Notes: generated by a model not told the origin, from the letters alone. DNA of 32,000 bases from Bellilinea caldifistulae (GCF_001306055.1 NZ_LGHJ01000012.1:180001-212000); one strand, 5' to 3'; numbered from the stretch's first letter, positions 8,585 through 29,227 are shown. Translations and numbers: made by a program.

Positions 8585-9121
8585 ATGAAGCAACCCAAAC
8601 CCTGGTGGCAACAACCCGGTTTCCGGGTCGGCATTGCACTGGTGTTGCTGATTTTGCTTGGCGGAGCAGTCAGCGCGGTGTATCTCACCCAGATTCCACC
8701 CGAACAGCCAATCGCCTTCCCGCACAATCGGCACGTCGGATTGGGTGCGCCCTGCGCCTACTGTCACCCCGGCACCGCCTGGGGACCCAACGCCGGCCTG
8801 CCGGGTATTGACAAATGCTGGGGCTGCCACCAGCAAGTCCAGAAAAAGTCACCCGAACTGGAAAAACTGGCTGCCTACGTGGCAAACAACCAGCCAATTC
8901 CATGGGTGCCGGTTGCCATTCAACCGGAATTCGTCCACTTCAATCATCAGCCGCATGTCAGCGCCGGAATTGCCTGTGAGACCTGTCACGGGGATATGAC
9001 CAAAATGACCGTTGCCGAGCCGCAGCCGCGTCAGAACATGGGCTGGTGCCTTTCCTGTCATCAAAAGATGGCCCCGGAACAGTGGACCAAACTTTCCGAC
9101 TGCGCAACCTGCCATTATTGA
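8585..9121 (+). CDS. actA: ACIII subunit ActA, pentahaem cytochrome c
   Basis: ATG 8585 after GAAAGGAG. One TM helix. Five CxxCH motifs (CAYCH, CWGCH, CETCH, CLSCH, CATCH). Position upstream of a MopB/FeS/NrfD trio. Confidence 0.85.
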   Translation: MKQPKPWWQQPGFRVGIALVLLILLGGAVSAVYLTQIPPEQPIAFPHNRHVGLGAPCAYCHPGTAWGPNAGLPGIDKCWGCHQQVQKKSPELEKLAAYVANNQPIPWVPVAIQPEFVHFNHQPHVSAGIACETCHGDMTKMTVAEPQPRQNMGWCLSCHQKMAPEQWTKLSDCATCHY

Positions 9122-11327: not shown

Positions 11328-12044
11328 ATGGCTGAACAAAAAGCACCTCAAAAATGGGGACTGGTGGTTGATCTCGACCGTTGTACGGGCTGCAATGCCT
11401 GCATCGCCGCCTGCTCGATGGAAAATAACATCCCCTTCGTCGGTGAGGACGAAGTGGCTTACGGACGCGGGTTGTACTGGCTCTACAACAAACGGGAATG
11501 GCGCGGCGAATATCCCGAAATCAAGCCGGCCTTTGAACCGGTCATGTGCCAGCAGTGCGGCAACGCCCCCTGTGAACCGGTCTGCCCGGTCTTCGCCTCG
11601 GTGCATAGCGAGGAAGAGCAAATCAATCTGGCCGTCTACAACCGCTGCGTTGGCACCCGTTACTGCGCCAATAACTGCCCCTATCACGCCCGTCAGTTCA
11701 ACTACTTCGATTACGAGCTGCCCGAACCGATGAATTCCTACCTCAACCCGGATGTGACCGTTCGGCGCCGTGGCGTGATGGAAAAATGCACCTTCTGCGT
11801 CCAGCGAATTGTGCGCGGACGACAGAAAGCCGCTGCCGAGGGACGGGAAGTGGAAGACGGCGAGATTCAACCCGCCTGCGTTCAGGCCTGCCCGGCCGGT
11901 GCGCTGGTGTTTGGGGATGTGAGCAATCCCGAAAGCAAAGCCAGTCAGATGGCGCGCAATCAGCGCCGCTATCAACTGCTGGAAGAATTGGGCACGCTAC
12001 CCCGGGTAACCTATCTCAAAGGAGGAGGACGCTATGGCGGCTGA
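11328..12044 (+). CDS. actB: ACIII subunit ActB, iron-sulfur part (B2; PsrB/NrfC-like ferredoxin), encoded as a separate gene
   Basis: AAGGAGAG RBS. Cys clusters CTGCNACIAAC, CQQCGNAPCEPVCP, CVGTRYCANNCP, CTFC...CVQACP. Confidence 0.85.
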   Translation: MAEQKAPQKWGLVVDLDRCTGCNACIAACSMENNIPFVGEDEVAYGRGLYWLYNKREWRGEYPEIKPAFEPVMCQQCGNAPCEPVCPVFASVHSEEEQINLAVYNRCVGTRYCANNCPYHARQFNYFDYELPEPMNSYLNPDVTVRRRGVMEKCTFCVQRIVRGRQKAAAEGREVEDGEIQPACVQACPAGALVFGDVSNPESKASQMARNQRRYQLLEELGTLPRVTYLKGGGRYGG

Positions 12045-13476
12045 GACCAATTTGCTGCAAGCCGTAAAGCCAGCCGAACACGCGGAAGAAGACCCCCGCG
12101 AACATTTGATGTTCGACCCGCGCCCGCGCGAGGAAATGAACCGCATGGTCATGGAGGCGATGACCACCACCACCCGCCGCTACTGGATCTGGCTGATCGC
12201 CCTTGGGCTGGGTGTGGCGGTCTTGTTGTTTGGCGCCTGGGGCAACATGATTTTGACCGGCATCGGGGTTGCCGGTGTCCGCCGCCCCATCTTTTGGGGT
12301 GTGTTCATCGTCACCTTTGTCTTCTGGATCGGCATCAGCCATGCCGGAACGTTTGTGTCGGCCATCCTGCGAGTCTTCAAGGCTGAATTCCGCCGCCCCT
12401 TCACCCGGGCAGCCGAGTTGATGACCACCTTCGGGCTGGCAGCCGGTGCGCTTTACCCCCTAATCCATCTTGGGCGGGTGTGGGTGTTCTACTGGATGAT
12501 TCCCTATCCCAACGCTCGCTGGTTGTGGCCAAACTTCCGTTCCCCCCTGGTGTGGGACTTTCTCGCCATCACCACGTACCTGCTTTCCAGCACCATTTAC
12601 CTCTACCTGCCGCTGGTTCCCGACCTGGCCATGGCGCGTGACCGTACCAAAGGTTGGCGTCATACGATTTATAAGCTGCTGGCTCTGGGCTGGCGCGGCA
12701 CCGAGGCCGAGTGGTACCGCCTGCGTAAAGCCATCAACATCTTTGCCTTTGCCATCATCCCGGTCATGTTCTCGGTGCACACCATCGTTTCGTGGGACTT
12801 TGCGGTAGGCATGGTGGCCGGCTGGCATTCGACCATCTTCGGCCCGTATTTCATCGTTGGCGCAATCCTTTCGGGTGTAGCAGCCGTGGTGACCATTCTG
12901 TTTGTCCTGCGCAACACCATGAAACACTTCGACTACTTCATCCGCGTCGAGCATTTTGATGCGCTGGGTAAACTGCTGCTGGTCTTTTCAATGGCATGGG
13001 CTTACTTCTTCTTCAACGAGTACCTGCTTTCGTGGTACGGTGGCGATGCTGCCGTCAAACAGGTGCTGACCCTGCACGCTACCGGCCCGGCGGCGTGGGT
13101 CTGGTACACCATGCTGATCTGCAATGTCGCCATCCCCTGGCTGACGCTGTGGAATAAGACCATCCGCCGCACACCCTGGGCGATGTTCATCATCACCCTG
13201 CTGATCAATGTGGGCATGTACGCCGAACGCTACACCATCATCCCCCTCACCCTCGGCCATCAACGCAGCCCGTTTGATTGGGGTGTGTATAACCCACAGT
13301 GGACCGAAATCAGCATTGCGTTAGGCACATTGTGTTTGTTCATGTTCCTGTATCTGGCTGCCTCACGCCTCATCCCGCTGGTGCCGGTCTGGGAAGTACA
13401 GGAAGGTCAAATGGCGCACACTCTCCGCAAAGTCGGCAAAGCCGAGGTACCCTCGGTGACCGAACTGGAAGAGTAA
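12034..13476 (+). CDS. actC: ACIII subunit ActC, NrfD/PsrC-like polytopic quinol-interacting membrane subunit
   Basis: ATG 12034 after AGGAGGAGGA, overlapping the actB2 stop by 11 nt. 480 aa with many hydrophobic helices, NrfD-like. Confidence 0.85.
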   Translation: MAAETNLLQAVKPAEHAEEDPREHLMFDPRPREEMNRMVMEAMTTTTRRYWIWLIALGLGVAVLLFGAWGNMILTGIGVAGVRRPIFWGVFIVTFVFWIGISHAGTFVSAILRVFKAEFRRPFTRAAELMTTFGLAAGALYPLIHLGRVWVFYWMIPYPNARWLWPNFRSPLVWDFLAITTYLLSSTIYLYLPLVPDLAMARDRTKGWRHTIYKLLALGWRGTEAEWYRLRKAINIFAFAIIPVMFSVHTIVSWDFAVGMVAGWHSTIFGPYFIVGAILSGVAAVVTILFVLRNTMKHFDYFIRVEHFDALGKLLLVFSMAWAYFFFNEYLLSWYGGDAAVKQVLTLHATGPAAWVWYTMLICNVAIPWLTLWNKTIRRTPWAMFIITLLINVGMYAERYTIIPLTLGHQRSPFDWGVYNPQWTEISIALGTLCLFMFLYLAASRLIPLVPVWEVQEGQMAHTLRKVGKAEVPSVTELEE

Positions 13477-13491
13477 TCAAGGAGCAAACGT

Positions 13492-14028
13492 ATGGCTGCA
13501 AAAGTCGTTCATCTGGCACTTTTCAAAGAAGAACAAATTGATCACGCCGCCGAAGCCATCTCCCGCCTGCACGAACTGGGCATCAGCGATCGCGATATTT
13601 CGGTCATCTCCGGCATCCCATACTCCGAGCGCATCCTCGGAAGGCCAATGTCATGGACGAACATCGGCCGGATTGGGCTGGCTGGGGCAGTACTGGGCTT
13701 TCTGGTGGCAACGTTTTTGAACTTTGGTACTCCCTTGCTGTATCCCATTCGCGTGGCCGCCATGGGACTGACTCCCATCCCAACCTCGATTGTGGTTACC
13801 TTTGAACTGACCATGCTGGGTCTGTTGATCAGCACCTTCATCGGCGTATTCGTGGAAACCATCTCACCGTCGTTTGGGCCGAAAGGCTACCACCCCAAGA
13901 TCAGTGACGGACACATCGGCATCCTGTTCAGCGGCCCGGCTCAACTGGATGAAAAAATTCACACCGCCCTCAGCGAATTGGGCGCCGAAGTGGTACATGA
14001 GGTAGAGGAGGAGAAGTTATGGCCGTAG
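13492..14028 (+). CDS. actD: ACIII subunit ActD (DUF3341-like)
   Basis: AAGGAG RBS. N-terminal soluble segment VHLALFKEEQIDHAAEAISRLHELG followed by two TM helices. Conserved position after actC. Confidence 0.75.
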   Translation: MAAKVVHLALFKEEQIDHAAEAISRLHELGISDRDISVISGIPYSERILGRPMSWTNIGRIGLAGAVLGFLVATFLNFGTPLLYPIRVAAMGLTPIPTSIVVTFELTMLGLLISTFIGVFVETISPSFGPKGYHPKISDGHIGILFSGPAQLDEKIHTALSELGAEVVHEVEEEKLWP

Positions 14029-14546
14029 CCAAACGTTTGATCCTTGTTCTGGTGGTGCTGGCCAGCCCGTTGCTGATCGGCTTGCTTTTCACCTACGACA
14101 TCATCAAAATCGAGTGGATTTCCTTCATGGAAATTCAGCCCTCTTACCGTTCGATGGAAGCACCCCTGCCGCTGCCGCCTCGCTCAGTGCCGGTACAGGG
14201 AGCGGCTTACATCCCCGAACTGGGCGCACCGGCAAACCCCGTTCCGGCAACCGAGGAGTCGATTCAGCGCGGCAAGGAGTACTATGACAATGCCTGCGCT
14301 CTCTGCCACGGGGCAACCGGCAACGGCGGCGGGGCTTTCTCCGGTTTTCTGGTGCAGTACCCGCCCGCCAACCTGGTCAAGCCCGACGCCAACGCCCGTC
14401 AAATCAGCGATGGGGCAATTTTCCTGACCATCACCAACGGCATTGAAGGGCGTATGCCGGCGCTGATCGAAAACCTCCCAACCCCCGAAATGCGCTGGGA
14501 CGTGGTCAACTATGTGCGCCACCTGCAGCAACAGGCCACCCCCTGA
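14019..14546 (+). CDS. actE: ACIII subunit ActE, membrane-anchored monohaem cytochrome c
   Basis: ATG 14019 after GAGGAGGAG, overlapping the actD stop. N-terminal TM helix. Single CALCHG motif with distal Met region (GRMPAL). Confidence 0.8.
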   Translation: MAVAKRLILVLVVLASPLLIGLLFTYDIIKIEWISFMEIQPSYRSMEAPLPLPPRSVPVQGAAYIPELGAPANPVPATEESIQRGKEYYDNACALCHGATGNGGGAFSGFLVQYPPANLVKPDANARQISDGAIFLTITNGIEGRMPALIENLPTPEMRWDVVNYVRHLQQQATP

Positions 14547-14723: not shown

Positions 14724-14757
14724 ATCGCCTTCCGATTTCGGTAAAGGCGATTTTTTT
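14724..14757 (+). promoter_or_regulatory. Intrinsic-terminator-like hairpin plus U-tract inside the csp leader (candidate attenuator/thermosensor)
   Basis: ATCGCCTT (14724-14731) pairs perfectly with AAGGCGAT (14744-14751). Inner CCGA/TCGG pairing. Followed by T7 (14751-14757), 55 nt before the csp ATG. Confidence 0.55.
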
Positions 14758-14811
14758 ATGACCCGATCGAAAAATCATCAAATCTTTTTAGTAACAAATG
14801 GAGTATCTCAA

Positions 14812-15021
14812 ATGTCTGATCGTGTAGTTGGTAATGTCAAGTGGTTCAATAGTGAAAAGGGCTACGGTTTTATTTCTCAGGAAAACGGCCCGGATGTCTT
14901 CGTCCATCACACTGCCATTCAGGCGGAAGGCTTCCGCACATTGAACGAAGGGCAAAAAGTTGAATTTTCCATCGAAAAGGGTCCCAAAGGCTTGCAGGCT
15001 GCCCGCTTGACCATTCTGTAA
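14812..15021 (+). CDS. csp: Cold-shock protein (CspA family, 69 aa)
   Basis: ATG 14812 with GGAG 8 nt upstream. RNP1/RNP2 motifs KGYGFI and VFVHH. The ORF-track extension to 14629 is not credible. Confidence 0.95.
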
Positions 15022-15040
15022 AATTCTCAACTCAAAAGCC

Positions 15041-15074
15041 AAAACACCCCTGTTCCAAACAGGGGTGTTTTTTA
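15041..15074 (+). terminator. Rho-independent terminator after csp
   Basis: ACACCCCTGT (15044-15053), loop TCCAA, ACAGGGGTGT (15059-15068), followed by TTTTT. Confidence 0.85.
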
Positions 15075-15129: not shown

Positions 15130-15219
<90 letters not shown>

Positions 15220-15226
15220 GAATTTT

Positions 15227-15249
15227 CCGGCCTCAGGGCCGGTTTTTTT
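15227..15249 (+). terminator. Rho-independent terminator after tRNA-Ser
   Basis: CCGGCC-TCAG-GGCCGG followed by T7. Confidence 0.8.
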
Positions 15250-15250
15250 C

Positions 15251-15279
15251 TTGCACTTTCAAAGGCGTTCGATTATAAT
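15251..15279 (+). promoter_or_regulatory. Sigma70-type promoter for tRNA-Val (TTGCAC-17-TATAAT)
   Basis: -35 TTGCAC (15251-15256), 17-nt spacer, -10 TATAAT (15274-15279), 13 nt before the tRNA 5' end. Confidence 0.7.
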
Positions 15280-15292
15280 TGGGGTTGCAAAC

Positions 15293-15369
15293 GGGCGGTT
15301 AGCTCAGTTGGTTAGAGCGTTGCGTTGACATCGCAGAGGTCGTAGGTTCGAGTCCTATACCGCCCACCA
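15293..15369 (+). tRNA. tRNA-Val (anticodon GAC), CCA encoded
   Basis: Manual fold. Acceptor GGGCGGT/ACCGCCC. D arm GCTC-AGTTGGTTA-GAGC. Anticodon stem TTGCG/CGCAG with loop TTGACAT. T arm GTAGG-TTCGAGT-CCTAT. Discriminator A then CCA. Confidence 0.92.
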
Positions 15370-15374
15370 GAGTC

Positions 15375-15401
15375 AAAAAGCCGCGTTGAAGCGGCTTTTT
15401 T
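15375..15401. terminator. Bidirectional rho-independent terminator (after tRNA-Val on + and after the island operon on -)
   Basis: AAAAA-GCCGC-GTTGAA-GCGGC-TTTTTT, with A- and T-tracts on both sides. Confidence 0.8.
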
Positions 15402-15528
15402 CTTGGAATTGTGCGCTAATGTCCCCGTCAGCGGAATTGAAACGCTCCGACTTGAAGAAATTGACGAAAAATGATGGGGGACTTTTCCTTGATCTACCCA
15501 AACACCTCACCAATCCACCGCAGAGCCT

Positions 15529-16245
15529 CTAACACTCCAAAAAATTTACCTCGCTCTTATATTTTATACTTGTAATCGTTCCATCATGGAGGTTAATCAC
15601 ACAATCAGATTCTTCAGCAACACGCAAATCATGAGTGACGAGCAAGACGGATAGCGCTTTATCTTCTACCAGCGTGCGAAACAACTTAACAATTTCCATA
15701 CCCGTCTTTGAATCCAGGTTTCCCGTAGGTTCATCGGCCAAGAGAAGGGACGGTTCATGGATCAAAGCGCGTGCAATAACCACCCGTTGCTGTTCACCCC
15801 CCGATAACTCAGCCGGTAAATGATTGATCCGATTTCCAAGTCCTACCCATTCAATCAGGTGCATTGCCTTTTCTTTCAAGTTAAAACCCAATGAATGTTG
15901 ATAAGGCAGCAAGGGCAGCATCACATTTTCAATCACGGTCAGTACAGGCAAGAGGTGATAGAGTTGAAATACAAAACCGATATTCTTTCGGCGGAATGCC
16001 GTTATTTGATCTTCCGAAAGATTGGAATAGTTTACATCACCAACGATAATATGCCCTGATGTAGGTTTATCTATCCCCGCAATCAGGTTCAGCAAAGTGG
16101 TTTTTCCACTACCCGATGGTCCAATGATTGTGGTGAGTTGAGTTTTCTTTACTTCCAGGTCTAAATTATGTAGGGCTGTGACTTTATTAAAGCCGGTATC
16201 ATACACCTTGGATACGCCAGAACAAATCACGATTGAATTTTTCAT
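15529..16245 (-). CDS. ABC transporter ATP-binding protein, MacB/LolD/FtsE-type
   Basis: Walker [10 protein letters not shown], signature LSGGEQQR, Walker [10 protein letters not shown]-loop VTHD. The start overlaps the permease stop (ATGA). Confidence 0.95.
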
Positions 16246-19200
16246 TTCATTTCATCCATCAGGTTTTGAAGCGCAACATAGGAAAAAGAGGTAAATTGGG
16301 AAAGTTTGTCCATTTCAATCGTGGAAATATCATCAAAAAGCGAGCCGATAAATTCATTGCCTGCCCCACAAAGACCAACAGATGGTAAATTCGCTGAAAG
16401 TAAGATAGATAACGATAGTGGACAGGTGTAATTCGTTGATTTGATAGAAACGCCGAATGATTCGCCTGTTTTTAAGATTGAATTCCGTAATATCTCAGGA
16501 CTTTCACTAAGGCCCATCTTCTTTTCCAACAATCCATTTAGCCAATCCATTAAGTTTGGATCATCCAGATTGATGCTCATCATCCAATTTTCTCTTACCC
16601 TTGCAATATCTATTTCCTGATTATTGATATCCGATGAACTCAAGTCATTGTCCACAGCGATATATTGCCAGTTACCCGTCTGTGAAATATCTATTACCCC
16701 CACAACACTTGGAATTTCTGTTAAATGATTCTGAATATATGCTATCAGCCCACTATATTGGCTGGCCAGTCCCGGCAACCAGATAAAACGAAGCGTATAA
16801 GGCGTTCCGGATTCAGCAAATTGTCGAGCCAGCTCCAATAGCGTAACCGTCCCTGTAAGGCTTAAATCTGCCGCAGGAGTACCTTCTCTGGCATCGTAAT
16901 GAGTGGTGACCCAAATTTCTTTTTCCGGATATACGCTACCCCGAATGGTTGCTCCCAAAACCTTTGCTTGATAAAACTTTATTTCAACATTTTTCTCCAT
17001 AACTTGTTTTACATCTGAAGAAATTCCTGCAGGGTCTTGAAGCGCAACACCCACAATACCCATGGGAAGAGCACATTTTTTTTCAAGCAGCTCCACCACG
17101 GGATGAATGAAATGGACAGGCTCACGGCTATGACCAGCCAGCATTAACCATCTTTGATCCAAGGAATCACAGACCTCTATCACTTGGTCAATTGGGCTAT
17201 AAATTAACGGTGTTCTTTGGTTCAGAAGATTTGAAGCAAGCTTAAAGTGGGTCGCAGAAGTTACCAGCGACATTGGATTCCCTTCATTGCGATAAGGCAG
17301 TAATTGAAACACAAGATTTTGCTGTTGATCAAAGATATCTGCGGTTTGGTAAGGGACCCACTCTTCATAAACATTCACCCCCATTAAGGATAATTTTTGA
17401 AGCAATATCCGGACAATGATCTCGTTTCGGTCATTCAAGGAAGAAGCGGATTCCATTACCCCATTCAATTCTTTCATAACTTCATTGATTTGATTTTCGT
17501 CTATTGTCAGGTCTCCATTACCTTTGGTGGAAAGCGGAGTTTGCACTGTCGGCAAAGAAGTGATGCGGATAAGATTTCCAGCCAGATAATTAACAAGACC
17601 AATGAAAAGTAAAAGCAGTAACAGAATTTGCCCAAACTTGAAACGATGTGTAGATGAGCGTACGCCCGGAAGATGAAGATACGCCAACGATTTTGAAGTG
17701 CCAACCCAACAAGCGATTAAGATCAGCGCCAAGGCAACTCCAAGGATAGAGAGGTTTAATCCTAGAAAATTTGCAGGGATACCTTTCCAAAATGAAACCG
17801 CTATCATGCCCAATAAAACACCCATAACACCAAAAATCCCCCCCCGCATGAAACTTTCATAAAAGACCATTCTAAAGAGTTGTTTCTTATCCCAACCTAT
17901 GTACACCAAAGTTCTGAATTCAGTTTCTCTTTGTGCCACATTCAGCACAACATTTTGGACGAGAATCAATATCCCTATTAGCAATGAACAAGCGGTCAGG
18001 AGTAAATAATAGGGCGAAAGACTGATCATTAAGTGTTTCCCAAGCAAATTTAGATTCACATCTCCTTTATTAACAGACCAGATATAAATCATTGATACAA
18101 AGGTGAAAGTAATTAAGCCAATAGAAATTCCATTGACGAGATACCGTCTCGGCCGTCGTCTTATTTGATAAAGAACCAATTTACTAAATGTAAAATCAGT
18201 AGAGCAATTTCTTCTTTTTATTGAAGTTTCGCCAAAATGTAGAAGGTGGTAGCTTCTCTTTCTCACCTCATTCATGAACAACGGGAGACTGGACACGATA
18301 GAAACCCCTCCGACAACGCTACCGATGGTCACAATTTCACGAATAGAAATATTCAGATCCAACAAAATGGAGAGAAAAAGGATTAAAACCGTAAGCGGGA
18401 CAATCCCCCAAACGGTGATCCATGAAATATACTTTACCAGCCTTCGAAGAATATAACGATTCTCCCATCCTAGCGCCTTCAACAAACCAATTTCAGGCAG
18501 TGTAGAGAGAACAAATAAATTAGTATTTGTAATAATCAACAAAATAGAGCCGATTAACAAAAGAAGCAATAGAATTAGGTTTATTAAGTTAACACCGCTC
18601 TCAATATATTGGGTAGATCCCAAGGAAGTCCAATTTTCTTCAACGTACCCTATCCCCGGAACATATAAAAGAATTTTTTGGGGAGATGCACCAGCCACAA
18701 TGTCAACATGAAGACCGGTTTTTTCTTGAATTTCGGTGGCAATTCTTTCAATTTTATGAACATTTTCGGATGAATACCCCGATATATCGCGTATTCGCAC
18801 TCTGATCGCATCAATATAGTCAGGCCGTCCCACCAAGTACTGAGCAGCCTCAAGGGTTGTTAAACCTAATGGTGGTCGGGGATTAAAACTACCCGGATTC
18901 AAGCCCGGAGAAAGCAACTTAGGTTCTAGAATGGAACCGTTTTCGTCATATACCAGTACTTCTTGCGGCGGTTCATAAATTCCGAGGGGAACGTAAGATA
19001 GCGGGTCTAATCGCTGGATAATTGACCCAATATTATATACGCCTTTTACATCAGGAATAAATGGCAGCGGCTTAATTGCTTCCAATGAGCGAAAAACAGT
19101 TTGCTCACCATTAAGTAACGGCAAGTTCTTCAAAAATTGGGGGTCAAATTTTGATCTCGCTTCTGCATCCAATTCATTCCGAACAATTTCCTCCCAATTA

Positions 19201-20318
19201 CCATATGGTTTGATACTAAAGTGAGATGGAAAATCTTCCGAACCTTCATGAAATTCATACTTAAAAATGCCGGGACGAAGAATTATATTTGAGTCAAGAG
19301 GTATATAACCTCCTTCTGCCTCCAATCGGGGTGGTTTATTGGTTGAAAAAACTACAGACTGAAGGACAAGCGGACGGAGGGCGCTTGATAAATCATATCT
19401 TTGACGAATTAATACTTCCCCCTTTTGGTCCAATTCCACCATTTTTTCACGCAATACTTCATTCGACTCATCCTCCTTTAACTTCTCGACATCCTCAGAT
19501 TGGATAGGCAGCTTTCGTAATAATATTTCAACACCCAAGTTGATAAAACTTTGACGATTGACCAACAGGGGTATTTTTACTGCCTTTTGTTTAACCCCAT
19601 CTAAACCTACTTTAAGCTCTTCGTTTTGGAGATAGTCCCCCTCTTCAATCGCCTCGTCTAATCCGATTAACTTGGCTTCGGCTTCGGGATCAATCCCTGC
19701 CACCAGTATCCATTGAGGAGGCAAAGAACCAATATTAAGAGAAGCCCAATCTCCTACCATCCCGGCACCGCTAAAAGACAGATCGCCTTTCAAAAAATCA
19801 TTAAATAGAAAATTATCATCGCTTTCAGCAAAATAAGCGCTGGGCGTTGGAAATTCCTGGACGACAGCCTCATCGCCATACCATCCTATTTTCATTTCAT
19901 ATAAATTATTAGGTAGATAGGGCTCAATTCTGACCGCGATGCTCCCCAAATTATTCATCATAAACCCAACCACCGAAATCGGAGCAGCGACTTCCACATC
20001 CGGCATGCTTTTTATCCACTCATATTGTTCTTCCGTGATTCCACCTTGTGATGCTCCAAGGTAATTTCCTTCTACTATGCCATGTTCTTTTTCTACCTGA
20101 GTGATTGCCGTTTGAGGCCGGAGAAGTAAATCATACGCTCCACGCCAATGTTGGGAAAGTTGTGCGGTCGTTTTTATTTCGATTGTGTGAAGGATGATTA
20201 CGAAAACCAATAGACCAACATATAAAATCCCCAGACCAATGATTGTAATCGGAATCTGACTTTCCAAACCCCTTATCAGTTTGATTTGGATTTTTTTGAC
20301 TTTGGCAGAAATATTCAT
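16242..20318 (-). CDS. Giant (about 1358 aa) FtsX/MacB-type ABC permease: TM1, ~530-aa extracytoplasmic domain, FtsX module 1, TM5, short loop, FtsX module 2, TM9, and a ~440-aa C-terminal extracytoplasmic PA/M28-like domain
   Basis: Uninterrupted ORF 16242..20333. ATG at 20318 preferred: GGGGAG 7 nt upstream and a TAATG overlap with the upstream small ORF. FtsX-like helices (e.g. LLKALGWENRYILRRL, FRTLVYIGWDKKQLFRMV). C-terminal motifs WVTTHYDA, PAADLSLTGTVTLLELARQF and VVGVIDIS resemble M28 aminopeptidases. Confidence 0.85.
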   Translation of the reverse strand: MNISAKVKKIQIKLIRGLESQIPITIIGLGILYVGLLVFVIILHTIEIKTTAQLSQHWRGAYDLLLRPQTAITQVEKEHGIVEGNYLGASQGGITEEQYEWIKSMPDVEVAAPISVVGFMMNNLGSIAVRIEPYLPNNLYEMKIGWYGDEAVVQEFPTPSAYFAESDDNFLFNDFLKGDLSFSGAGMVGDWASLNIGSLPPQWILVAGIDPEAEAKLIGLDEAIEEGDYLQNEELKVGLDGVKQKAVKIPLLVNRQSFINLGVEILLRKLPIQSEDVEKLKEDESNEVLREKMVELDQKGEVLIRQRYDLSSALRPLVLQSVVFSTNKPPRLEAEGGYIPLDSNIILRPGIFKYEFHEGSEDFPSHFSIKPYGNWEEIVRNELDAEARSKFDPQFLKNLPLLNGEQTVFRSLEAIKPLPFIPDVKGVYNIGSIIQRLDPLSYVPLGIYEPPQEVLVYDENGSILEPKLLSPGLNPGSFNPRPPLGLTTLEAAQYLVGRPDYIDAIRVRIRDISGYSSENVHKIERIATEIQEKTGLHVDIVAGASPQKILLYVPGIGYVEENWTSLGSTQYIESGVNLINLILLLLLLIGSILLIITNTNLFVLSTLPEIGLLKALGWENRYILRRLVKYISWITVWGIVPLTVLILFLSILLDLNISIREIVTIGSVVGGVSIVSSLPLFMNEVRKRSYHLLHFGETSIKRRNCSTDFTFSKLVLYQIRRRPRRYLVNGISIGLITFTFVSMIYIWSVNKGDVNLNLLGKHLMISLSPYYLLLTACSLLIGILILVQNVVLNVAQRETEFRTLVYIGWDKKQLFRMVFYESFMRGGIFGVMGVLLGMIAVSFWKGIPANFLGLNLSILGVALALILIACWVGTSKSLAYLHLPGVRSSTHRFKFGQILLLLLLFIGLVNYLAGNLIRITSLPTVQTPLSTKGNGDLTIDENQINEVMKELNGVMESASSLNDRNEIIVRILLQKLSLMGVNVYEEWVPYQTADIFDQQQNLVFQLLPYRNEGNPMSLVTSATHFKLASNLLNQRTPLIYSPIDQVIEVCDSLDQRWLMLAGHSREPVHFIHPVVELLEKKCALPMGIVGVALQDPAGISSDVKQVMEKNVEIKFYQAKVLGATIRGSVYPEKEIWVTTHYDAREGTPAADLSLTGTVTLLELARQFAESGTPYTLRFIWLPGLASQYSGLIAYIQNHLTEIPSVVGVIDISQTGNWQYIAVDNDLSSSDINNQEIDIARVRENWMMSINLDDPNLMDWLNGLLEKKMGLSESPEILRNSILKTGESFGVSIKSTNYTCPLSLSILLSANLPSVGLCGAGNEFIGSLFDDISTIEMDKLSQFTSFSYVALQNLMDEMK

Positions 20319-20560
20319 TAAGAATCTCCCCAATTAACCTGAATACAATAACTACTTCCTTCACCCTCGATATAGACATTCCACACTGCTCTGTATTGCG
20401 GAGAAAAAACGGTTTGGGCAGATGGCGATACAGATATCTCTGCTGGTATATAATTCGGCTGAGGGGGTGTTTGCGGGTATCCTAATACATTTGTACTGCC
20501 AATAGCAAGAAACATCATCAATCCTACGAAGAAAATGACAAGTGACTTCTTGAACGTCAT
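20318..20560 (-). CDS. Small secreted protein (80 aa; signal peptide plus ~53-aa mature part), first gene of the island operon
   Basis: ATG 20560 with GGAG 5 nt upstream. Signal peptide MTFKKSLVIFFVGLMMFLAIGSTNVLG. The stop TAA overlaps the permease ATG. Low-GC codon usage like its neighbours. Confidence 0.65.
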   Translation of the reverse strand: MTFKKSLVIFFVGLMMFLAIGSTNVLGYPQTPPQPNYIPAEISVSPSAQTVFSPQYRAVWNVYIEGEGSSYCIQVNWGDS

Positions 20561-20604
20561 TTTTTCTCCGTTTCCAAAAAAGTTCAGAGATGCTCCTGAA
20601 AAAA

Positions 20605-20632
20605 ATTATAATAAAAAACTTACTTCTGTCAA
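20605..20632 (-). promoter_or_regulatory. Consensus sigma70 promoter of the island operon (TTGACA-16-TATAAT)
   Basis: Minus strand: TTGACA (20627-20632), 16-nt spacer, TATAAT (20605-20610), about 45 nt upstream of the small-ORF ATG. Confidence 0.75.
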
Positions 20633-20798
20633 TAATCAGAACCAATTTCTAACCGTAAAGATGGATATTTTTACTTACCTTCTAAACCCCAATGAAAATC
20701 ACAGGACTTTGATGGTTAAGAATTGTTTAGAAAATTAAGATTTGCCCGTTTTTTAGACTTGTTTTTCAAAGAAGGGGCTAATAAGTTATACTTTTGTT

Positions 20799-22004
20799 TT
20801 ACTGCAAAAAATTCAGCGGATCCACCTTGCCGTACACATCGCTGCGCATTTCAAAGTGGAGGTGCGGGCCGGTCGAACGACCGGTGGAACCCATCAAACC
20901 GATCAGATCGCCCTGATAGACACTCTGTCCGCAGACCACATTGATCTGGGAGAGATGGGCGTAGTAAGTCTGCCACCCGTTGCCGTGATCAATCACAATC
21001 AGGTTGCCGTAGCCAAAGTCGTTCCAGCCGGCATAGACAATCACGCCGTTATCGGATGCGTAAATGCCCACACCGGTCGAACCGCCAATATCAATGCCGA
21101 AGTGGTTAATTTCCGGCTGATAGCGGTAACCGGAGATGTAGCGCGTGGCCGCCGGCCAGACGAATGTACTGGTACCCACCGCCCCGTCATACACCGTACC
21201 GCAGTAACCCGGACCAACCGTTTTGGCAACCGCCGGATTATCACGTGTAATACGCGGCATGTTCCAGGTGATGAATTGGCCTTCGCCGCCGGGGATAAAC
21301 AAAACCGTGCCGGGTTGGATATTGGGAGCAGCAAAATCACCCACACTCTCCAGCGTCAGGTTGTTACTGGGCCAGTTGATGATGTCCTCGGGAGTCACTT
21401 TGAAGAAGCGCGAGACAGCATTCAAACCATCCCCCGCATGCCACTCATAAACCGCCCCGTCGGTTGGCGGAATTTTGATCACCTGTCCGGGGGTGATCCA
21501 GTGCGGGTCACCCAGTTCTTTGGGATTGGTCCACATCAGCGATTGGGGCTTGAGGCCAAAACGCTCGGCAATGGTAAACAGGGTATCGCCGGGTTGAATT
21601 TCGTATTCCACAAAATCGAAACGCGGGCGGCTTGGCAGGGTGGTATGCAGCAATGCCAGCCGGAAAATACCATGCACCATGTTGTTTGCGGCCGGGTCAA
21701 AGCGAGGCGGTTCAATGGTCGGGGTAGCCGTGGGCAACGAAGCAGCAACTGCCGCAGTTTGAGGTGTTGCCACCTGACCTTTGAGGTAGAAGTTGCTCAT
21801 CACCCAAACCACCATCAGCACCAGCGCCAGCGAAGCCAAACCGCTACCAATCCGCATGGCGGCCTCTCCCAGCCCCATTTCCACCACGGTTTGCCATAAA
21901 TCGCCTATCCCGCCGGCTTTGAGTGACGGACTGACTGGATCGCTCTGTTTGGTTGAGTCAAGATCGGCACGGAACGGATCGTTCGGTGGCGATGTTTCGG
22001 TCAT
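20799..22004 (-). CDS. Membrane-anchored LysM-domain M23 (LytM-type) peptidoglycan endopeptidase
   Basis: TM anchor LASLALVLMVVWVM. LysM motif YEIQPGDTLFTIAERFGL...GQVIKIP. M23 motifs HFGIDIG and GSTGRSTGPHLHFEMR. Confidence 0.92.
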   Translation of the reverse strand: MTETSPPNDPFRADLDSTKQSDPVSPSLKAGGIGDLWQTVVEMGLGEAAMRIGSGLASLALVLMVVWVMSNFYLKGQVATPQTAAVAASLPTATPTIEPPRFDPAANNMVHGIFRLALLHTTLPSRPRFDFVEYEIQPGDTLFTIAERFGLKPQSLMWTNPKELGDPHWITPGQVIKIPPTDGAVYEWHAGDGLNAVSRFFKVTPEDIINWPSNNLTLESVGDFAAPNIQPGTVLFIPGGEGQFITWNMPRITRDNPAVAKTVGPGYCGTVYDGAVGTSTFVWPAATRYISGYRYQPEINHFGIDIGGSTGVGIYASDNGVIVYAGWNDFGYGNLIVIDHGNGWQTYYAHLSQINVVCGQSVYQGDLIGLMGSTGRSTGPHLHFEMRSDVYGKVDPLNFLQ

Positions 22005-25084: not shown

Positions 25085-28000
25085 TTAATGCCGTCGGCGT
25101 TTCTTCTTGCGAGCCGAACGGGAGGCTTCGTCCTTGCGTTCGACTGCTCCGGCCACCACATTTTCGGGCCTGGCTGCCGTCTCCACGCTGCTGCGGTCGC
25201 GTTCAACCTGCACCGTTGCACTGCGGCTGGGCTGGTAGGTGAACATCCGCGCCACCACGCCGCCGCGAATATCCTTGAGCAATTGCGAGAATAACTCCGT
25301 TGCCCGGCTCTTGTACTGCACCAGCGGATCACGCTGAGCATAGGCTTCCAGCCCAATTGAAACACGCAGGGCATCCACCCGTGTCAGGTAATCCACCCAC
25401 AATTGGGAGATCACCCCCAGCAGAATTTCGCGGTAGATTTGATTTTGTAAGCGCTCGCCCAACACACGCGCAATTTCCTGCAAGTCTTCGGCAGGCAATT
25501 CTTTCAAGTCACTTTCGGCAATTTCTTCAAAGCGTTCGTTGCCCAGCACGGCACGCAGGCGTTCCTGCAAGGGTTGACTCAGACGCGAAAGCGGCGTTTC
25601 GGTCTGAATCAGACGGCGCAATTCATAATTGCCCCACACCCGTTGCAATGCCAGCCGCGCGCCTTCGAGATGTTCCAGAATCTCCTCGCTGAGTTCCTCC
25701 GCATCACGGCCTTCCAGCAAACCAGCTGCCAAAAAGATGTAGGTCATGCGGATGACTTGCTGCCGTCCCCGCCGATGCGTGCGGCGGTCGAACGTCAGGC
25801 GAGTGCCTTGCGTCATGATCCCCAGCAGCCCCAGCAAAGCTGCCTGATTTTGCGCAAGCAGGATTTTCCCGTCCCCCACCCGTTCGAGGGCGGCATCCAG
25901 ATCCCGGGCGATCGGACCATCCGGGCTGGAAAGCCGTTCAACCCGCTCGTTGAGCAATCGTTCAACCTCACCGTACAACATCCGGGCTGCCTCGTCCCAG
26001 TCGCTGCCCATGTACTGAGCCGGACGGGCATCCAGTTCCTCAATGCGCCGTTGAATCGCCCCAATCACCCGGTTTAGCGTTACCGACATCAGCGCAGCCT
26101 CAACCTGCTCCTTTACCCGCTCGGCCAGATGATCGCCCCCCTGCGCCAGGGCGCGCATCTCTTCACTGCTCAAACGCAGCGGTACGCGCACCAGCCCGGA
26201 GAGTTCTTCCACCAGTTCCTGCGGGCGCAAACTGCCGCCGGACTCCTCCAGCCGGTCCGGCAATCCTTCAAAAAAGGTGTCCACAGTTTCCAGCCGCTCG
26301 GCCAGTTGCTGCTGGATAGCCTCTTCGCTGCGCTCCAGCAAACTTTCAATCGCCCGCAGCAGATGATTGCGCTCGGCTTCCAGCGCCCGGCGGGCTAACT
26401 CCAACAGCGCCCTCCGCAGTTGATCGGCGGTGATGGCTTCCTCGCCAAATTGCTCCTCAATTTCGTCCATCATCAGGCGTAAGGTGTAGGAGGGATAGGC
26501 CACCCCCTCAAAAGTGATTGGCGGCTGAATGTCTTCCAGATACGCCAGCAATTTCCACGGCCCTTCTTCATCGGTCAAAGCCGTTTCAACCCGGTTTTTC
26601 AGTTCGTTTTGCAGCATTTCGCGGACATCCTCGCTCAGGTCTTCTTTGGTAAAGACCCGGTCACGCTGCTCGTAGATGCGCTTGCGCTGCATGTTCAGCA
26701 CATCATCGTACTCAAGCAGGTGCTTGCGGATGTCGAAGTTATTGCCTTCCACCCGCGCCTGGGATTGCTCCACCAGTTTGGCAACCAGATTATTCTCAAT
26801 CGGCAGACTTTCGTCAATATTCAACCGCGCCATCAGGTTTTCCACCTGCGCGCCGCCAAACAGACGCATCAGGTCATCCTCCATGGAGAGATAAAAGCGG
26901 GAAGAACCGGGGTCACCCTGACGGGCAGCCCGTCCGCGCAACTGATTGTCTATCCGGCGGGCTTCGTGGCGTTCCGAGCCAATCACATGCAGACCGCCCA
27001 GTTCCCGCACCTTTTCCATCTCATCCATGTACTGCAAAAAGGCACGCACCGATTCTTCATAAATCCCGTAATCGGCCGGATTCATTTCCAAAAGCAGTTT
27101 TCGGCGCTGCTCGTTGGTCATCTCGTAGGGGTCGTCGCCGGCGCTTCTCAACACCCGGTTGACATCCGCCAGAATATCCTCGTCGAGTTCACCGCCCAGT
27201 TTGATATCCACACCGCGCCCCGCCATGTTGGTGGCAATCGTAACCGCACCGAAGGCGCCGGCGCGCGCAATAATCAGAGACTCTTCATCGTGTTTGCGGG
27301 CATTCAAAACCTGATGCGGCACACCGCCCTGCAACACCCTGACCAGTCGCGGACGGTCTTCTTCTCTCAAATTGAGCAAATTCAGTAACCGCTCCACATT
27401 TTCCGGGTCTTCCGGGTTGATGGAGGTCATCCCGACCGAGCGGGCAAAATTGCGCAATTCGGCGGTGTTCAGGTCGGGCAACGGTTTGTACAAAAACTGC
27501 AATTCGGGAATGGCGGTCTCACTTTCCTGCCGGTTGTGCTTGCGCAGCCAGGCATCTCGAATCAACATCACCTGCATTAAACGACGCAGCAATTCGGGCT
27601 GCAGGCGCAGCGAAAGCCGCTCCGAATGCTCCACCGATGTGGTACCCACCAATTGCGGCCGGCCGCGCACATGGTAGTGGATGATTTCCTGCACAATGGC
27701 ACGGATTTTCGCCTCTTCGGTGCGATAAATCACATCCGGGTAGTCTTTGCGTTTCCAGAACACTGGCGCTTTGAGCGGGTCATCCCGCCGGGCGTAATAG
27801 GTGTATTTATAGCCGTATTCGTCCTTGCCTTGCACTTCCACCAGTGTCGGGTTGGGTTGTATCGCCTTATATTCCAGATTGGTGGGAATGGGCAGCACTT
27901 CCAGTTTGTAAATTTTGGCGAATTCTTCCGCCTCGGTCAGCGCCGTTCCGGTCATACCGGCCAGTTTTTCGTACATGCGGAAGTAATTTTGAATGGTGAT

Positions 28001-29206
28001 GGTGGCGTAGGTGATATTTTCCGGCTCGACCTTAACACCTTCTTTAGCCTCGACAGCCTGATGCAGCCCCTCCGACCAGCGCCGTCCGGGCATCAGTCGG
28101 CCGGTAAATTCATCAATGATGATCACCTTGCCGCCCTGTACCAGATAGTCCTTATTGCGTTTGAAGAGGAATTGCGCTTTGAGAGCTTGTTCCAGATAAC
28201 CCAGCAAGCGGGCCTGTTCGGGATTGATATCCTCCGGACGTTCCGGATCCACCAGCGGCATATCCAGCAATTCCTCGACATGCGCCATCCCCACTTCGGT
28301 CAGGGTGACAGTGCGGTCGCGCTCGTTGATTTCGTAGTCTTCTTCGCGCAGGGCGCGCACCACCTGAGCCATCTTGATGTACCATTCGGCTTCATCGGCT
28401 GCCGGACCGGAGATGATCAACGGGGTACGGGCTTCATCAATCAAAATGTTGTCCACCTCGTCCACAATGGCGTAGTAATGCCCGCGCTGTGATCGTTCTT
28501 CCAGCCGGTAAGCAAGATTGTCGCGCAGATAGTCAAAACCGAACTCGCTGTTGGTACCGTAGGTAATATCGGCGCGGTAGGCTTCAGCCCGATCCACCAT
28601 GCGCAGTTGATGCTGGTCCTCGAACGGTGAGGTTTTTTCCAGATCCACCAGAAAAGCCTTGCGCCCGTTTTCGGTGCGGCTGGCCATTTGCAGCACGCCG
28701 ACTTTCAGGCCCAAAAAGTCGTAAATTGGCCCCATCCAGCGCGCATCCCGGCGGGCAAGGTAGTCGTTGACCGTGACCAGATGCACGCCCCGTCCGGTCA
28801 GGGCATTCAGGTAGAGCGGCAAGGTGGCGACCAGGGTCTTGCCTTCACCGGTGCGCATTTCGGCAATTTTGCCTTCATGGAGCACCATACCGCCGATCAA
28901 TTGCACTTCGTAATGACGCAGACCAATGGTGCGCTTGCTGGCTTCACGCACGGCGGCAAAAGCCTGCGGCAGAATTTCATCCAGTGCGACTTTTTCAGCC
29001 TGCCGGCGTTCGGCCTCGTTTTCGATACCGGCGGTTGCCTGCCGGATGTAGGCGCGAAATTCATCGGTTTTGGCGCGTAATGCATCATCCGATAATTTTT
29101 CAAATTCGGCTTCCAGCGCGTTAATCTGCTCGGCGCGCGCCGCCAGCCGTTGTATTTCTCGTTTATTCGGGTCAACGCCCAAGATGTTGACGATCTTTTT
29201 GAACAT
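25085..29206 (-). CDS. secA: Preprotein translocase ATPase SecA, unusually long (about 1373 aa) with large insertions and no C-terminal zinc-binding motif
   Basis: ATG 29206 with GAGGTG 7 nt upstream. Motifs [47 protein letters not shown] and [31 protein letters not shown]. The C-terminus ends KKKRRRH without Cys. Confidence 0.95.
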
Positions 29207-29227
29207 AAACAATCACCTCTCTGCGGG

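Follow-up and report, generated by a model that had tools for sequence, protein, structure and literature searches.

The DNA analyzed here is a window of 32,000 nucleotides from Bellilinea caldifistulae (NZ_LGHJ01000012.1:180001-212000), and all coordinates are positions in this whole window. A block of low GC content corresponds exactly to a cassette of three genes on the minus strand, which encode a small protein with a signal-peptide-like N-terminus, a giant permease of 1358 amino acids (aa) with nine predicted transmembrane (TM) helices, and an ATPase of the ATP-binding cassette (ABC) type. Residues of the permease are numbered in the 1358-aa protein; labels such as P0001 stand for homologous proteins and labels such as L001 for homologous loci. 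The cassette comprises the following features.

15400 to 20800: low-GC block, exactly the three-gene cassette, about 40% GC compared with about 57% in the flanks
20605 to 20632, minus strand: promoter-like site TTGACA-16 nt-TATAAT, a 12/12 match and as such a consensus match only, upstream of the small gene in a spacer of 27.5% GC
20318 to 20560, minus strand: small gene (80 aa, signal-peptide-like N-terminus), truncated as judged from the alignment with relatives, ending at the permease start codon
16242 to 20318, minus strand: giant permease gene, 1358 aa plus stop; the product has two large ectodomains, two FtsX modules (4+4 TM), and TM9 as an additional helix
15529 to 16245, minus strand: ABC ATPase gene, 238 aa, with a start that overlaps the permease stop (ATGA)

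The open reading frame (ORF) of the permease runs on the minus strand from an ATG at 20318 to a stop codon at 16242-16244 and contains 1358 codons. A TTG at 20333 is an alternative start, and the homologue P0001, which is 94% identical, uses the same methionine as the ATG at 20318. A chimera or misassembly as the origin of this frame was ruled out because the same architecture, with 1330 to 1430 aa, occurs in more than 25 proteins with 28 to 94% identity, taken from independent assemblies.

Hydropathy analysis according to Kyte and Doolittle gave nine TM helices for the permease at about aa 24-46, 575-600, 627-650, 657-680, 726-749, 765-795, 822-845, 850-878, and 893-918. The last of these, TM9, has the sequence FGQILLLLLLFIGLVNYLAGNLI and is the ninth helix that had been picked out in an earlier sequence-only reading of this locus. 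The mean number of lysine plus arginine residues (K+R) near the membrane, counted over 25 family members, was 2.5 to 7.4 in loops assigned to the cytoplasm and 0.1 to 1.2 in loops assigned to the outside, with the membrane-proximal ends of the large ectodomain (2.4) as the exception. The nine hydropathy peaks and this positive-inside charge bias support a predicted topology of nine TM helices with the N-terminus inside and the C-terminus outside, and the following layout of the protein.

20181 to 20249, minus strand: TM1 (aa 24-46), from hydropathy and charge counts, preceded by a basic cytoplasmic N-terminus (aa 1-23, 5 K/R)
18597 to 20180, minus strand: ectodomain 1 (aa 47-574, 528 aa), from an AlphaFold2 model, Foldseek, and conservation by region
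18279 to 18596, minus strand: FtsX module 1, TM2 to TM4 (aa 575-680), from Pfam FtsX, a profile search of the PDB, and hydropathy
18144 to 18278, minus strand: basic cytoplasmic linker (aa 681-725, 45 aa, 12 K/R), which unites the permease halves without interceding TM helices
17685 to 18143, minus strand: TM5, an outside loop of 15 aa, and FtsX module 2 with TM6 to TM8 (aa 726-878), from Pfam, profile, and hydropathy
17565 to 17684, minus strand: short basic cytoplasmic loop and TM9 (aa 879-918), from hydropathy and charge counts, returning the chain to the outside
16245 to 17564, minus strand: C-terminal ectodomain (aa 919-1358, 440 aa), predicted PA plus M28 aminopeptidase fold with a degenerate active site

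This layout agrees with the sequence-only reading in the number of TM helices, in the location of the last 440 aa or so outside the cell and not in the cytoplasm, and in the order from TM1 through an ectodomain of about 530 aa, FtsX module 1, a basic linker, TM5 with a short loop, FtsX module 2, and a basic loop to TM9. The first ectodomain had been placed at about nt 18597-20186 and was found at nt 18597-20180. The description as a three-ectodomain protein had to be abandoned: there are two large ectodomains only, and the remaining outside loops contain 4 to 15 residues. The first permease unit fits the scheme of four TM helices with the N-terminus inside and an ectodomain between TM1 and TM2, whereas the second unit has only the 15-aa loop between TM5 and TM6 at this place and thus no ectodomain of its own.

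Two stretches of the permease matched FtsX (PF02687) of Pfam above the gathering score with an E value of 1.7e-11, the best stretch being aa 774-874. A permease family profile of 25 full-length relatives, searched against the PDB, found MacB (5nik) with an E value of 5e-12 over profile positions 773-899, aligned the FtsX chains 8tzj and 8idb over positions 578-675 (module 1), and matched in addition the TM regions of LolE, LolC, YtrF, PsdB (E value of 0.011), FtsX, and YbbP (E value of 0.067). No NCBIfam model matched the permease, including the FtsX equivalogs and the immunity models. In the product of the overlapping ATPase gene, all motifs were intact, namely, Walker A, the Q-loop, the LSGGE signature, Walker B (LLLADEP), and the H-loop, and ABC_tran of Pfam was matched with an E value of 8e-35. 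The nearest NCBIfam models of the ATPase were LolD, DevA, FtsE, YbbA, and MacB, and its score was below the equivalog cut-off of every one of them, for instance, 199 bits compared with a cut-off of 264.85 in the case of FtsE. Because of the FtsX stretches, the profile matches to MacB and its relatives, and the overlapping gene for a MacB/LolD-like ATPase with intact motifs, the giant protein is a Type VII ABC permease of the MacB/FtsX superfamily, as the sequence-only reading had assumed, and one that stands outside every named subfamily. A role in anti-phage defence was considered and rejected: PADLOC gave no match to the permease and the small protein, and its matches to the ATPase were generic P-loop ones throughout.

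The AlphaFold2 model of ectodomain 1, built from 43 sequences, reached a pLDDT (predicted local distance difference test) value of 88.3 and a pTM (predicted TM-score) of 0.89. Foldseek identified as the best match the periplasmic domain of LolE (5udf; E value of 2.6e-3, probability of 1.0, target TM-score of 0.53), followed by LolCDE and MacB. These were the sole significant structural relatives among the solved structures and spanned about 200 of 526 residues; the remainder of the ectodomain had no counterpart among solved structures in the Foldseek search, and MacB_PCD of Pfam did not match the permease. The segments aa 47-130, 196-232, and 433-574 displayed a mean pairwise identity of 56 to 64%, the highest in the protein, compared with 37 to 40% in the TM modules and 22 to 29% in the segments aa 131-195 and 233-432, which are insertions of about 265 aa in total. 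Model and conservation pattern moderately support the assumption that ectodomain 1 consists of a Porter/LolE-like mechanical core with large lineage-specific insertions. A Porter subdomain is said to be common to all Type VII ectodomains (PMC5985334).

The arrangement can be compared with known members of the superfamily. In the fused forms listed by a review of the MacB family from 2018, two additional TM helices connect the two permease units (4+2+4), and one (BceB) or two (YbbP) periplasmic domains are present; a 4+4+1 form with a C-terminal ectodomain is not on this list (PMC5985334). Like the giant permease, the BceAB-type proteins BceB, PsdB, and VraG contain both FtsX halves in one polypeptide, carry a large ectodomain in one half, and are served by a separate MacB-type ATPase, for which a 2:1 ATPase-to-permease stoichiometry has been proposed for BceAB (PMC5985334). 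However, BceB has a total of 10 TM helices, its ectodomain lies between TM7 and TM8 (PMC5985334) and not between TM1 and TM2, and it has no C-terminal ectodomain. Sequence likeness to the BceAB type is limited to the FtsX helices, and neither a histidine kinase nor a response regulator of a BceRS-type two-component system was found among the neighbours in the window and in L001 to L006. YbbP, with marginal sequence likeness to the permease profile, possesses 10 TM helices including two interceding ones and two periplasmic domains, while the halves of the giant permease are linked directly by the 45-aa cytoplasmic linker and only one ectodomain appears to be of the Porter type. MacAB, LolCDE, and FtsEX-EnvC, the last being another pairing of a Type VII system with a partner in trans (PMC7668044), share the FtsX fold, a MacB/LolD/FtsE-like ATPase, and probably a Porter-like ectodomain core with the cassette. 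Their permeases are 4-TM units that form homo- or heterodimers, have ectodomains of about 100 to 200 aa instead of 528 aa, and act on partners in trans, in contrast to the single chain here. FtsX of FtsEX in particular is a 4-TM protein of about 300 aa with equivalog models, with which neither the giant permease nor the ATPase agrees.

On its own, the window protein scored 19.9 bits with Peptidase_M28 of Pfam, which is below the gathering score of 21.3; its relatives pass this score. A profile of 17 C-terminal domains, searched against the PDB with HMMER, matched PA-domain M28 aminopeptidases over nearly the whole domain (2EK8, E value of 9.5e-23; YwaD/BSAP 6HC6, E value of 4.7e-20) and, more weakly, PaAP, a Vibrio aminopeptidase, nicalin, glutaminyl cyclases, the transferrin receptor, and GCPII. 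The AlphaFold2 model of the domain (pLDDT of 86.3) led in Foldseek to BSAP (6hc6, E value of 7.8e-21), followed by 2EK8, PaAP, TfR1, and GCPII in a range from 1e-21 to 1e-13, so that the ranking by fold agreed with that by sequence profile. The C-terminal ectodomain is predicted from both to have a PA plus M28 aminopeptidase fold, with N-lobe, PA insert, and M28 core in the same order as in YwaD/BSAP, the Aneurinibacillus aminopeptidase 2EK8, and PaAP of P. aeruginosa. A family-specific insert of about 70 aa (aa 1226-1295) is added. PA-M28 homologues are secreted or anchored by a single TM helix, whereas in this case an ABC permease serves as the tether. The secreted nature of the homologues and the pair of cysteine residues C1299/C1317, conserved in 23 of the 25 members, fit a location of the domain outside the cell.

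The active site is a different matter. In the HMMER alignment, YwaD shows in order the motifs AHYDS, PGANDNGSG, FGAEELGLLGS, NLDMVG, and HTPED, and the window protein THYDA, TPAADLSLTG, LPGLASQYSGL, VIDISQTG, and GSLFDD. The catalytic positions are occupied by H, D, D, L, A, S, and G instead of the canonical H, D, D, E, E, D, and H. Of the metal ligands, the window protein retains the bridging Asp and, among the four that do not bridge, the first His only, with A, S, and G in place of the others and L at the position of the general base. Among the 25 relatives, the first His is kept in 16, the ligand Glu and the fourth-ligand Asp in 7 each, and the general-base Glu and the last His ligand (Gly in 20) in none. 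The HYDS and PGAD..SG motifs are retained, and most M28-fused members have kept the first His together with the HxD Asp and the bridging Asp. Since not one of the 25 members has the general-base Glu or the last His ligand, the domain should be a catalytically dead pseudo-peptidase across the whole family. An active aminopeptidase in the M28-fused family was rejected on the basis of this residue-by-residue alignment to YwaD and 2EK8 and of the family counts.

These residues also bear on the idea that the cassette may be an extract-and-hydrolyse machine, in which the permease lifts a membrane-associated peptide or lipopeptide to an active fused aminopeptidase. A precedent is YbbAP-TesA of E. coli, likewise a Type VII permease of two fused units with an extracytoplasmic hydrolase-fold protein (PMC12646458), and the three residues retained in most M28-fused members would agree with some remaining function in hydrolysis. 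TesA, however, is a separate and catalytically active SGNH esterase, whereas the M28/PA domain is fused via an extra TM helix and appears degenerate, with general-base Glu and last His ligand lost throughout, the other ligands variable, and only one of the four non-bridging ligands left in the window protein. Moreover, the same pattern of loss occurs in the non-catalytic proteins TfR1 and nicalin, both of which are among the matches of the domain. Hydrolysis by the M28-fused form is consequently very unlikely. The sequence-only reading had proposed a partner-like domain fused directly to the permease; a hydrolase-like module in cis was indeed found, albeit one that appears to be a pseudo-enzyme with its catalytic residues lost family-wide and not an active partner. 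Peptidase-containing ABC transporters belong to the classical exporters with six TM helices, and their C39 cysteine peptidase, which removes leader peptides, is located in the cytoplasm at the N-terminus of the chain. They are unrelated to the giant permease with its predicted Type VII fold and extracytoplasmic C-terminal metallopeptidase fold. What they have in common is a peptidase-fold domain fused to the chain of an ABC transporter (PMC10986499).

The full layout is shared by about 25 proteins of 1360 to 1430 aa with 28 to 94% identity. Among the species-representative genomes, Chloroflexota alone contained the full-length form (Bellilinea, Anaerolinea, Longilinea, Anaerolineales, Ardenticatenales, and one metagenome-assembled genome of “Candidatus Humimicrobiia”), and Chloroflexia and Ktedonobacteria possess a form of the permease without the C-terminal domain. 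Among 1.84 billion cluster representatives, the full C-terminal domain occurred only in proteins of the fused type or their fragments (about 20 clusters), and matches weaker than an E value of about 1e-6 were ordinary M28 peptidases that aligned with the core only. The M28-fused members found were metagenome-derived sequences only, nearly all from Chloroflexota. What had been read as a single unusual ORF is real in its architecture but not unique, being part of a small Chloroflexota family of about 20 clusters at 50% identity, for which precomputed FtsX plus Peptidase_M28 labels already exist in the databases under no other names than “FtsX-like permease” or hypothetical protein. Literature searches for FtsX with M28 or with a fused peptidase yielded nothing relevant on such a fusion, in line with the earlier reading, in which the arrangement was not known to have been described, and no characterised family with this architecture was found. 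The architecture is new to the literature searched; the system itself is of the known Type VII kind and not a new kind.

Distant relatives from Firmicutes (24 to 26% identity) have kept the core and TM9, followed by other C-terminal ectodomains of 180 to 640 aa. In P0033, P0034, and P0037 (L037:7001-11584), a Peptidase_M1 domain with intact HEXXH-X18-E and GxME(Y) motifs comes after TM9, and an extract-and-hydrolyse function would be plausible for those. Such a fusion in Bacillaceae, for example, the 1527-aa protein of Rossellomorea aquimaris, is possibly an active permease-peptidase, and no description of a Bacillaceae permease-M1 fusion was found in the literature. The Firmicutes relatives had housekeeping-like neighbourhoods, in which the ATPase gene comes first and a small secreted protein is not encoded, and these gave no functional clue. 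All fused relatives possess the ninth TM helix, whereas the 8-TM base forms lack it and end 12 to 21 residues past TM8. As judged from these proteins, TM9 with a swappable ectodomain is a recurrent feature of the permease clade.

The sequence-only reading missed a third conserved component of the system, the small secreted protein, which is truncated in the window. In relatives with an intact gene, it comprises 128 to 147 aa with a Sec-type signal peptide, about 100 mature residues, and the shared motifs PPQPxYIPAEI, QTW, and VYK. The gene is located upstream of the fused permease gene in L002, L006/L008, L009, L010, L014, L015, and L016, which belong to Bellilinea-like bacteria, Anaerolinea, Humimicrobiia, and other lineages (33 to 86% identity), and a remnant of 36 aa is left in L004, L005, and L011 (UBA7929). 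It was not found beside any examined locus without the C-terminal domain. In the reverse direction, a search starting from small-protein homologues led to P0050 and P0056, each directly followed by a giant FtsX-M28 gene, and to the weakest match, P0057 (E value of 2e-6), which has no giant permease gene after it and is perhaps not a genuine homologue. The small Sec-secreted protein is co-encoded with the fused form of the permease and only with the fused form. Its homologues form only 10 clusters in 5.8 billion proteins, and no match was obtained in Pfam (E value of 1 or lower), including Lactococcin_972, or in the PDB. An IS66-family transposase (L006:8428-9834, also in L008) is situated between the small gene and the giant permease gene in a Bellilinea sp. 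relative; L006/L008 was the only case of such a transposase within the cassette.

In the window, a deletion of about 360 bp compared with L002 (L002:9640-10000), with the junction at 20318-20335, has cut the small gene from 130 to 80 aa by removal of the last 50 codons and the spacer. The permease gene nevertheless has a Shine-Dalgarno-like GGAG sequence 7 nt before its ATG, and the TTGACA/TATAAT site, which is likely the operon promoter as predicted from its consensus match, is retained.

Gene order may also indicate another function. A gene for a small secreted protein, one for a large FtsX-type membrane protein, and one for an ATPase follow each other as in lcn972-orf2-orf3 (PMC4055356), and the ATPase matches the L_ocin_972_ABC model (TIGR03608) with an E value of 8.8e-55. 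The cassette could be one for a lactococcin 972-like bacteriocin with self-immunity or export by an ABC system, in which the small protein would be antagonistic, permease and ATPase would protect the producer, and the dead peptidase would capture the peptide. In genomes where the small gene has been lost, the transporter would remain as orphan immunity, which suits at least two events of small-gene decay beside an intact transporter, as does the nature of the cassette as a low-GC, horizontally exchanged unit that evolves faster than its flanks (divergence at replacement sites, dN, of 0.2 compared with 0.02 to 0.08). However, the 185 bits of the ATPase with this model are below the cut-off of 254.85 and also below its own scores with LolD and FtsE, the giant protein matches no immunity model, and the small protein lacks a Lactococcin_972 or other Pfam match as well as conserved cysteine residues. 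In L009 and L010, the small protein is more conserved than the permease (54 to 55% compared with 35% identity), unlike a toxin in an arms race. With only the gene order shared with lactococcin 972 clusters, a bacteriocin function is unlikely.

It can be added to the sequence-only reading that the cassette is a horizontally exchanged, low-GC island in its surroundings. The features concerned are as follows.

15130 to 15369, plus strand: tRNA-Ser(GGA) and tRNA-Val(GAC), from Rfam, abutting the right-hand boundary of the island
20799 to 22004, minus strand: gene for a LysM plus M23 peptidase, directly upstream of the island and with the composition and divergence of the flank
16590 to 16601, minus strand: site of a 27-bp in-frame deletion compared with P0001 (about 16595/16596, between aa 1241 and 1242), which removes KTEGQYLAR

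The other boundary of the island is the stop codon of the LysM-M23 peptidase gene. A GC contrast between cassette and flank was also present in L001, L006, and L010, and absent from L004, L009, L014, and L025, where the gene is at local composition. Between the window and L001, the divergence at silent sites (dS) was 0.07 for permease and ATPase and 0.60 to 0.73 for four genes of the flanks. When the window was compared with L006, the dS of the cassette was 1.1 to 1.6, so that its silent sites are not slow by nature. The low dS of the cassette compared with that of the flanks shows, as far as silent sites record it, a horizontal exchange between the lineages of the window and L001 well after their split. 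Boundaries of the integrase type were rejected, because neither att-like direct repeats nor a duplication of tRNA fragments was found around 15.4 to 20.8 kb and the window contains no integrase; homologous recombination between the conserved flanks seems the more likely route of exchange.

The dN/dS ratio of the cassette was 0.2 to 0.34 and that of the flanks 0.03 to 0.10, so that the cassette exceeds the flanks 3- to 10-fold. The nine residues removed from the C-terminal domain by the 27-bp deletion include a G-Q pair that hardly varies among the family members. Because of the truncated small gene, this deletion, and the raised dN/dS, the window copy of the cassette may be in early decay. It might even be a decaying and already non-functional remnant of an acquired island, which would concern this copy only and not the function of the family. 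The loss of the native spacer together with the end of the small gene, the loss of the G-Q motif, and a dN/dS of 0.34 compared with L001, with 0.03 to 0.07 in the flanks, point in this direction. Against it stand the frame of 1358 codons and an ATPase that are fully intact, the GGAG sequence and the consensus promoter, and the fact that a dN/dS of 0.34 still means purifying selection. Complete loss of function of this copy is rather improbable.

The LysM-M23 peptidase gene next to the island could mean that the cassette regulates cell-wall hydrolysis in the manner of FtsEX by acting on this peptidase. The M23/LysM gene is directly upstream in the window, L001, and L006, and FtsEX systems control factors of the LytM/M23 type, as in FtsEX-EnvC (PMC7668044). 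This adjacency is not conserved in L004, L009, L010, L013, L014, and L039, the peptidase gene is part of the high-GC flank with a dS of 0.70 compared with 0.07 in the island, the score of the ATPase falls short of the FtsE cut-off, and none of the FtsX equivalogs matches the permease. A functional link to the neighbouring peptidase was therefore rejected as a candidate, and regulation of cell-wall hydrolysis in this way is highly improbable.

Rfam reported over the cassette region only the two tRNAs and a cspA thermoregulator, all of them outside the cassette. The thermoregulator match (14730-15072, plus strand, 82 bits, E value of 4e-20) covers the leader and coding region of a cold-shock gene and precedes tRNA-Ser and tRNA-Val. 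The island is also flanked by an operon of the Alternative Complex III type (11328-14546, plus strand, starting probably near 9012) for an Fe-S protein, an NrfD-like protein, ActD, and cytochrome c, with a molybdopterin-family subunit upstream of these genes in the syntenic L001; the operon is consistent with a Chloroflexota origin. On the other side, an ORF of 1375 aa (25085-29212, minus strand) is syntenic with an L001 gene carrying SecA Pfam domains. SecA usually has about 800 to 950 aa, and this ORF probably has a large insertion or extension.

Taken together, we see about an even chance that the cassette encodes a mechanotransducer of the Type VII ABC kind whose partner is fused to it in cis. 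In this reading, the pseudo-peptidase would be a binding module and the small protein the likely ligand. The two 4-TM FtsX units, placed head to tail by the basic cytoplasmic linker, form an intramolecular pseudo-dimer, which would be served by two copies of the adjacent ATPase, as proposed for BceAB. Binding and hydrolysis of ATP would move the stalk helices and ectodomain 1 by mechanotransmission, and ectodomain 1 would work with or on the cis-tethered pseudo-peptidase as a non-catalytic module for binding of a peptide or protein. The ligand or partner would be extracytoplasmic or membrane-associated, and the small secreted protein is the best candidate. Use of this dead M28 scaffold for binding is known from the transferrin receptor and nicalin, and EnvC, which uses a dead LytM domain, is a precedent for a catalytically dead partner with a hydrolase fold.

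Several points weigh against this mechanotransducer reading. No characterised close homologue of the giant permease was found, the 2:1 stoichiometry and the mechanotransmission step are drawn from analogy, and the Porter assignment of ectodomain 1 depends on a marginal Foldseek E value of 2.6e-3, although with a probability of 1.0 and a target TM-score of 0.53. Some members such as P0011 and P0012 keep a possible mono-zinc site (H, D, D), and a non-canonical activity is possible in these. The C-terminal domain is the least conserved module (25 to 39% identity), and this low conservation together with the raised dN/dS of the cassette may indicate relaxed constraint instead of a finely tuned interaction. 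Finally, the small protein is absent or decayed in some lineages (the window, UBA7929, and L013) and hence not strictly required.

A wider proposal, which must be considered tentative with the chances rather against it, is that the clade represents an unrecognised subclass of Type VII systems with the partner within the permease and TM9 as an adaptor for swappable ecto-modules. As predicted from the sequences, these would be dead PA-M28 domains in Anaerolineae, apparently active M1 domains in Bacillaceae, and other domains elsewhere. The dead aminopeptidase of Anaerolineae would then be a receptor for the N-terminus or a peptide of the small protein, with hydrolysis of ATP in the cytoplasm controlling its capture, release, or assembly outside the cell.

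The family is rare, and with an M28-fused form from metagenome-derived sequences, the practical impact is limited for now. In the current picture, Type VII ABC systems such as MacAB, LolCDE, FtsEX, BceAB, and YbbAP work as motors and push on partner proteins that are separate from them and lie outside the membrane; the chief questions in the field concern the transmission of this force and the targets of the many orphan members. A 4+4+1 arrangement with a C-terminal ectodomain extends the list of architectures in the 2018 review of the MacB family. The parallel M1 fusion in Bacillaceae suggests a wider and unstudied link of this permease clade to the handling of extracellular peptides. As a natural single-chain version with a covalently tethered, partner-like pseudo-enzyme and a small secreted protein of its own, the system would lend itself well as a model for structural and biochemical work on the coupling.

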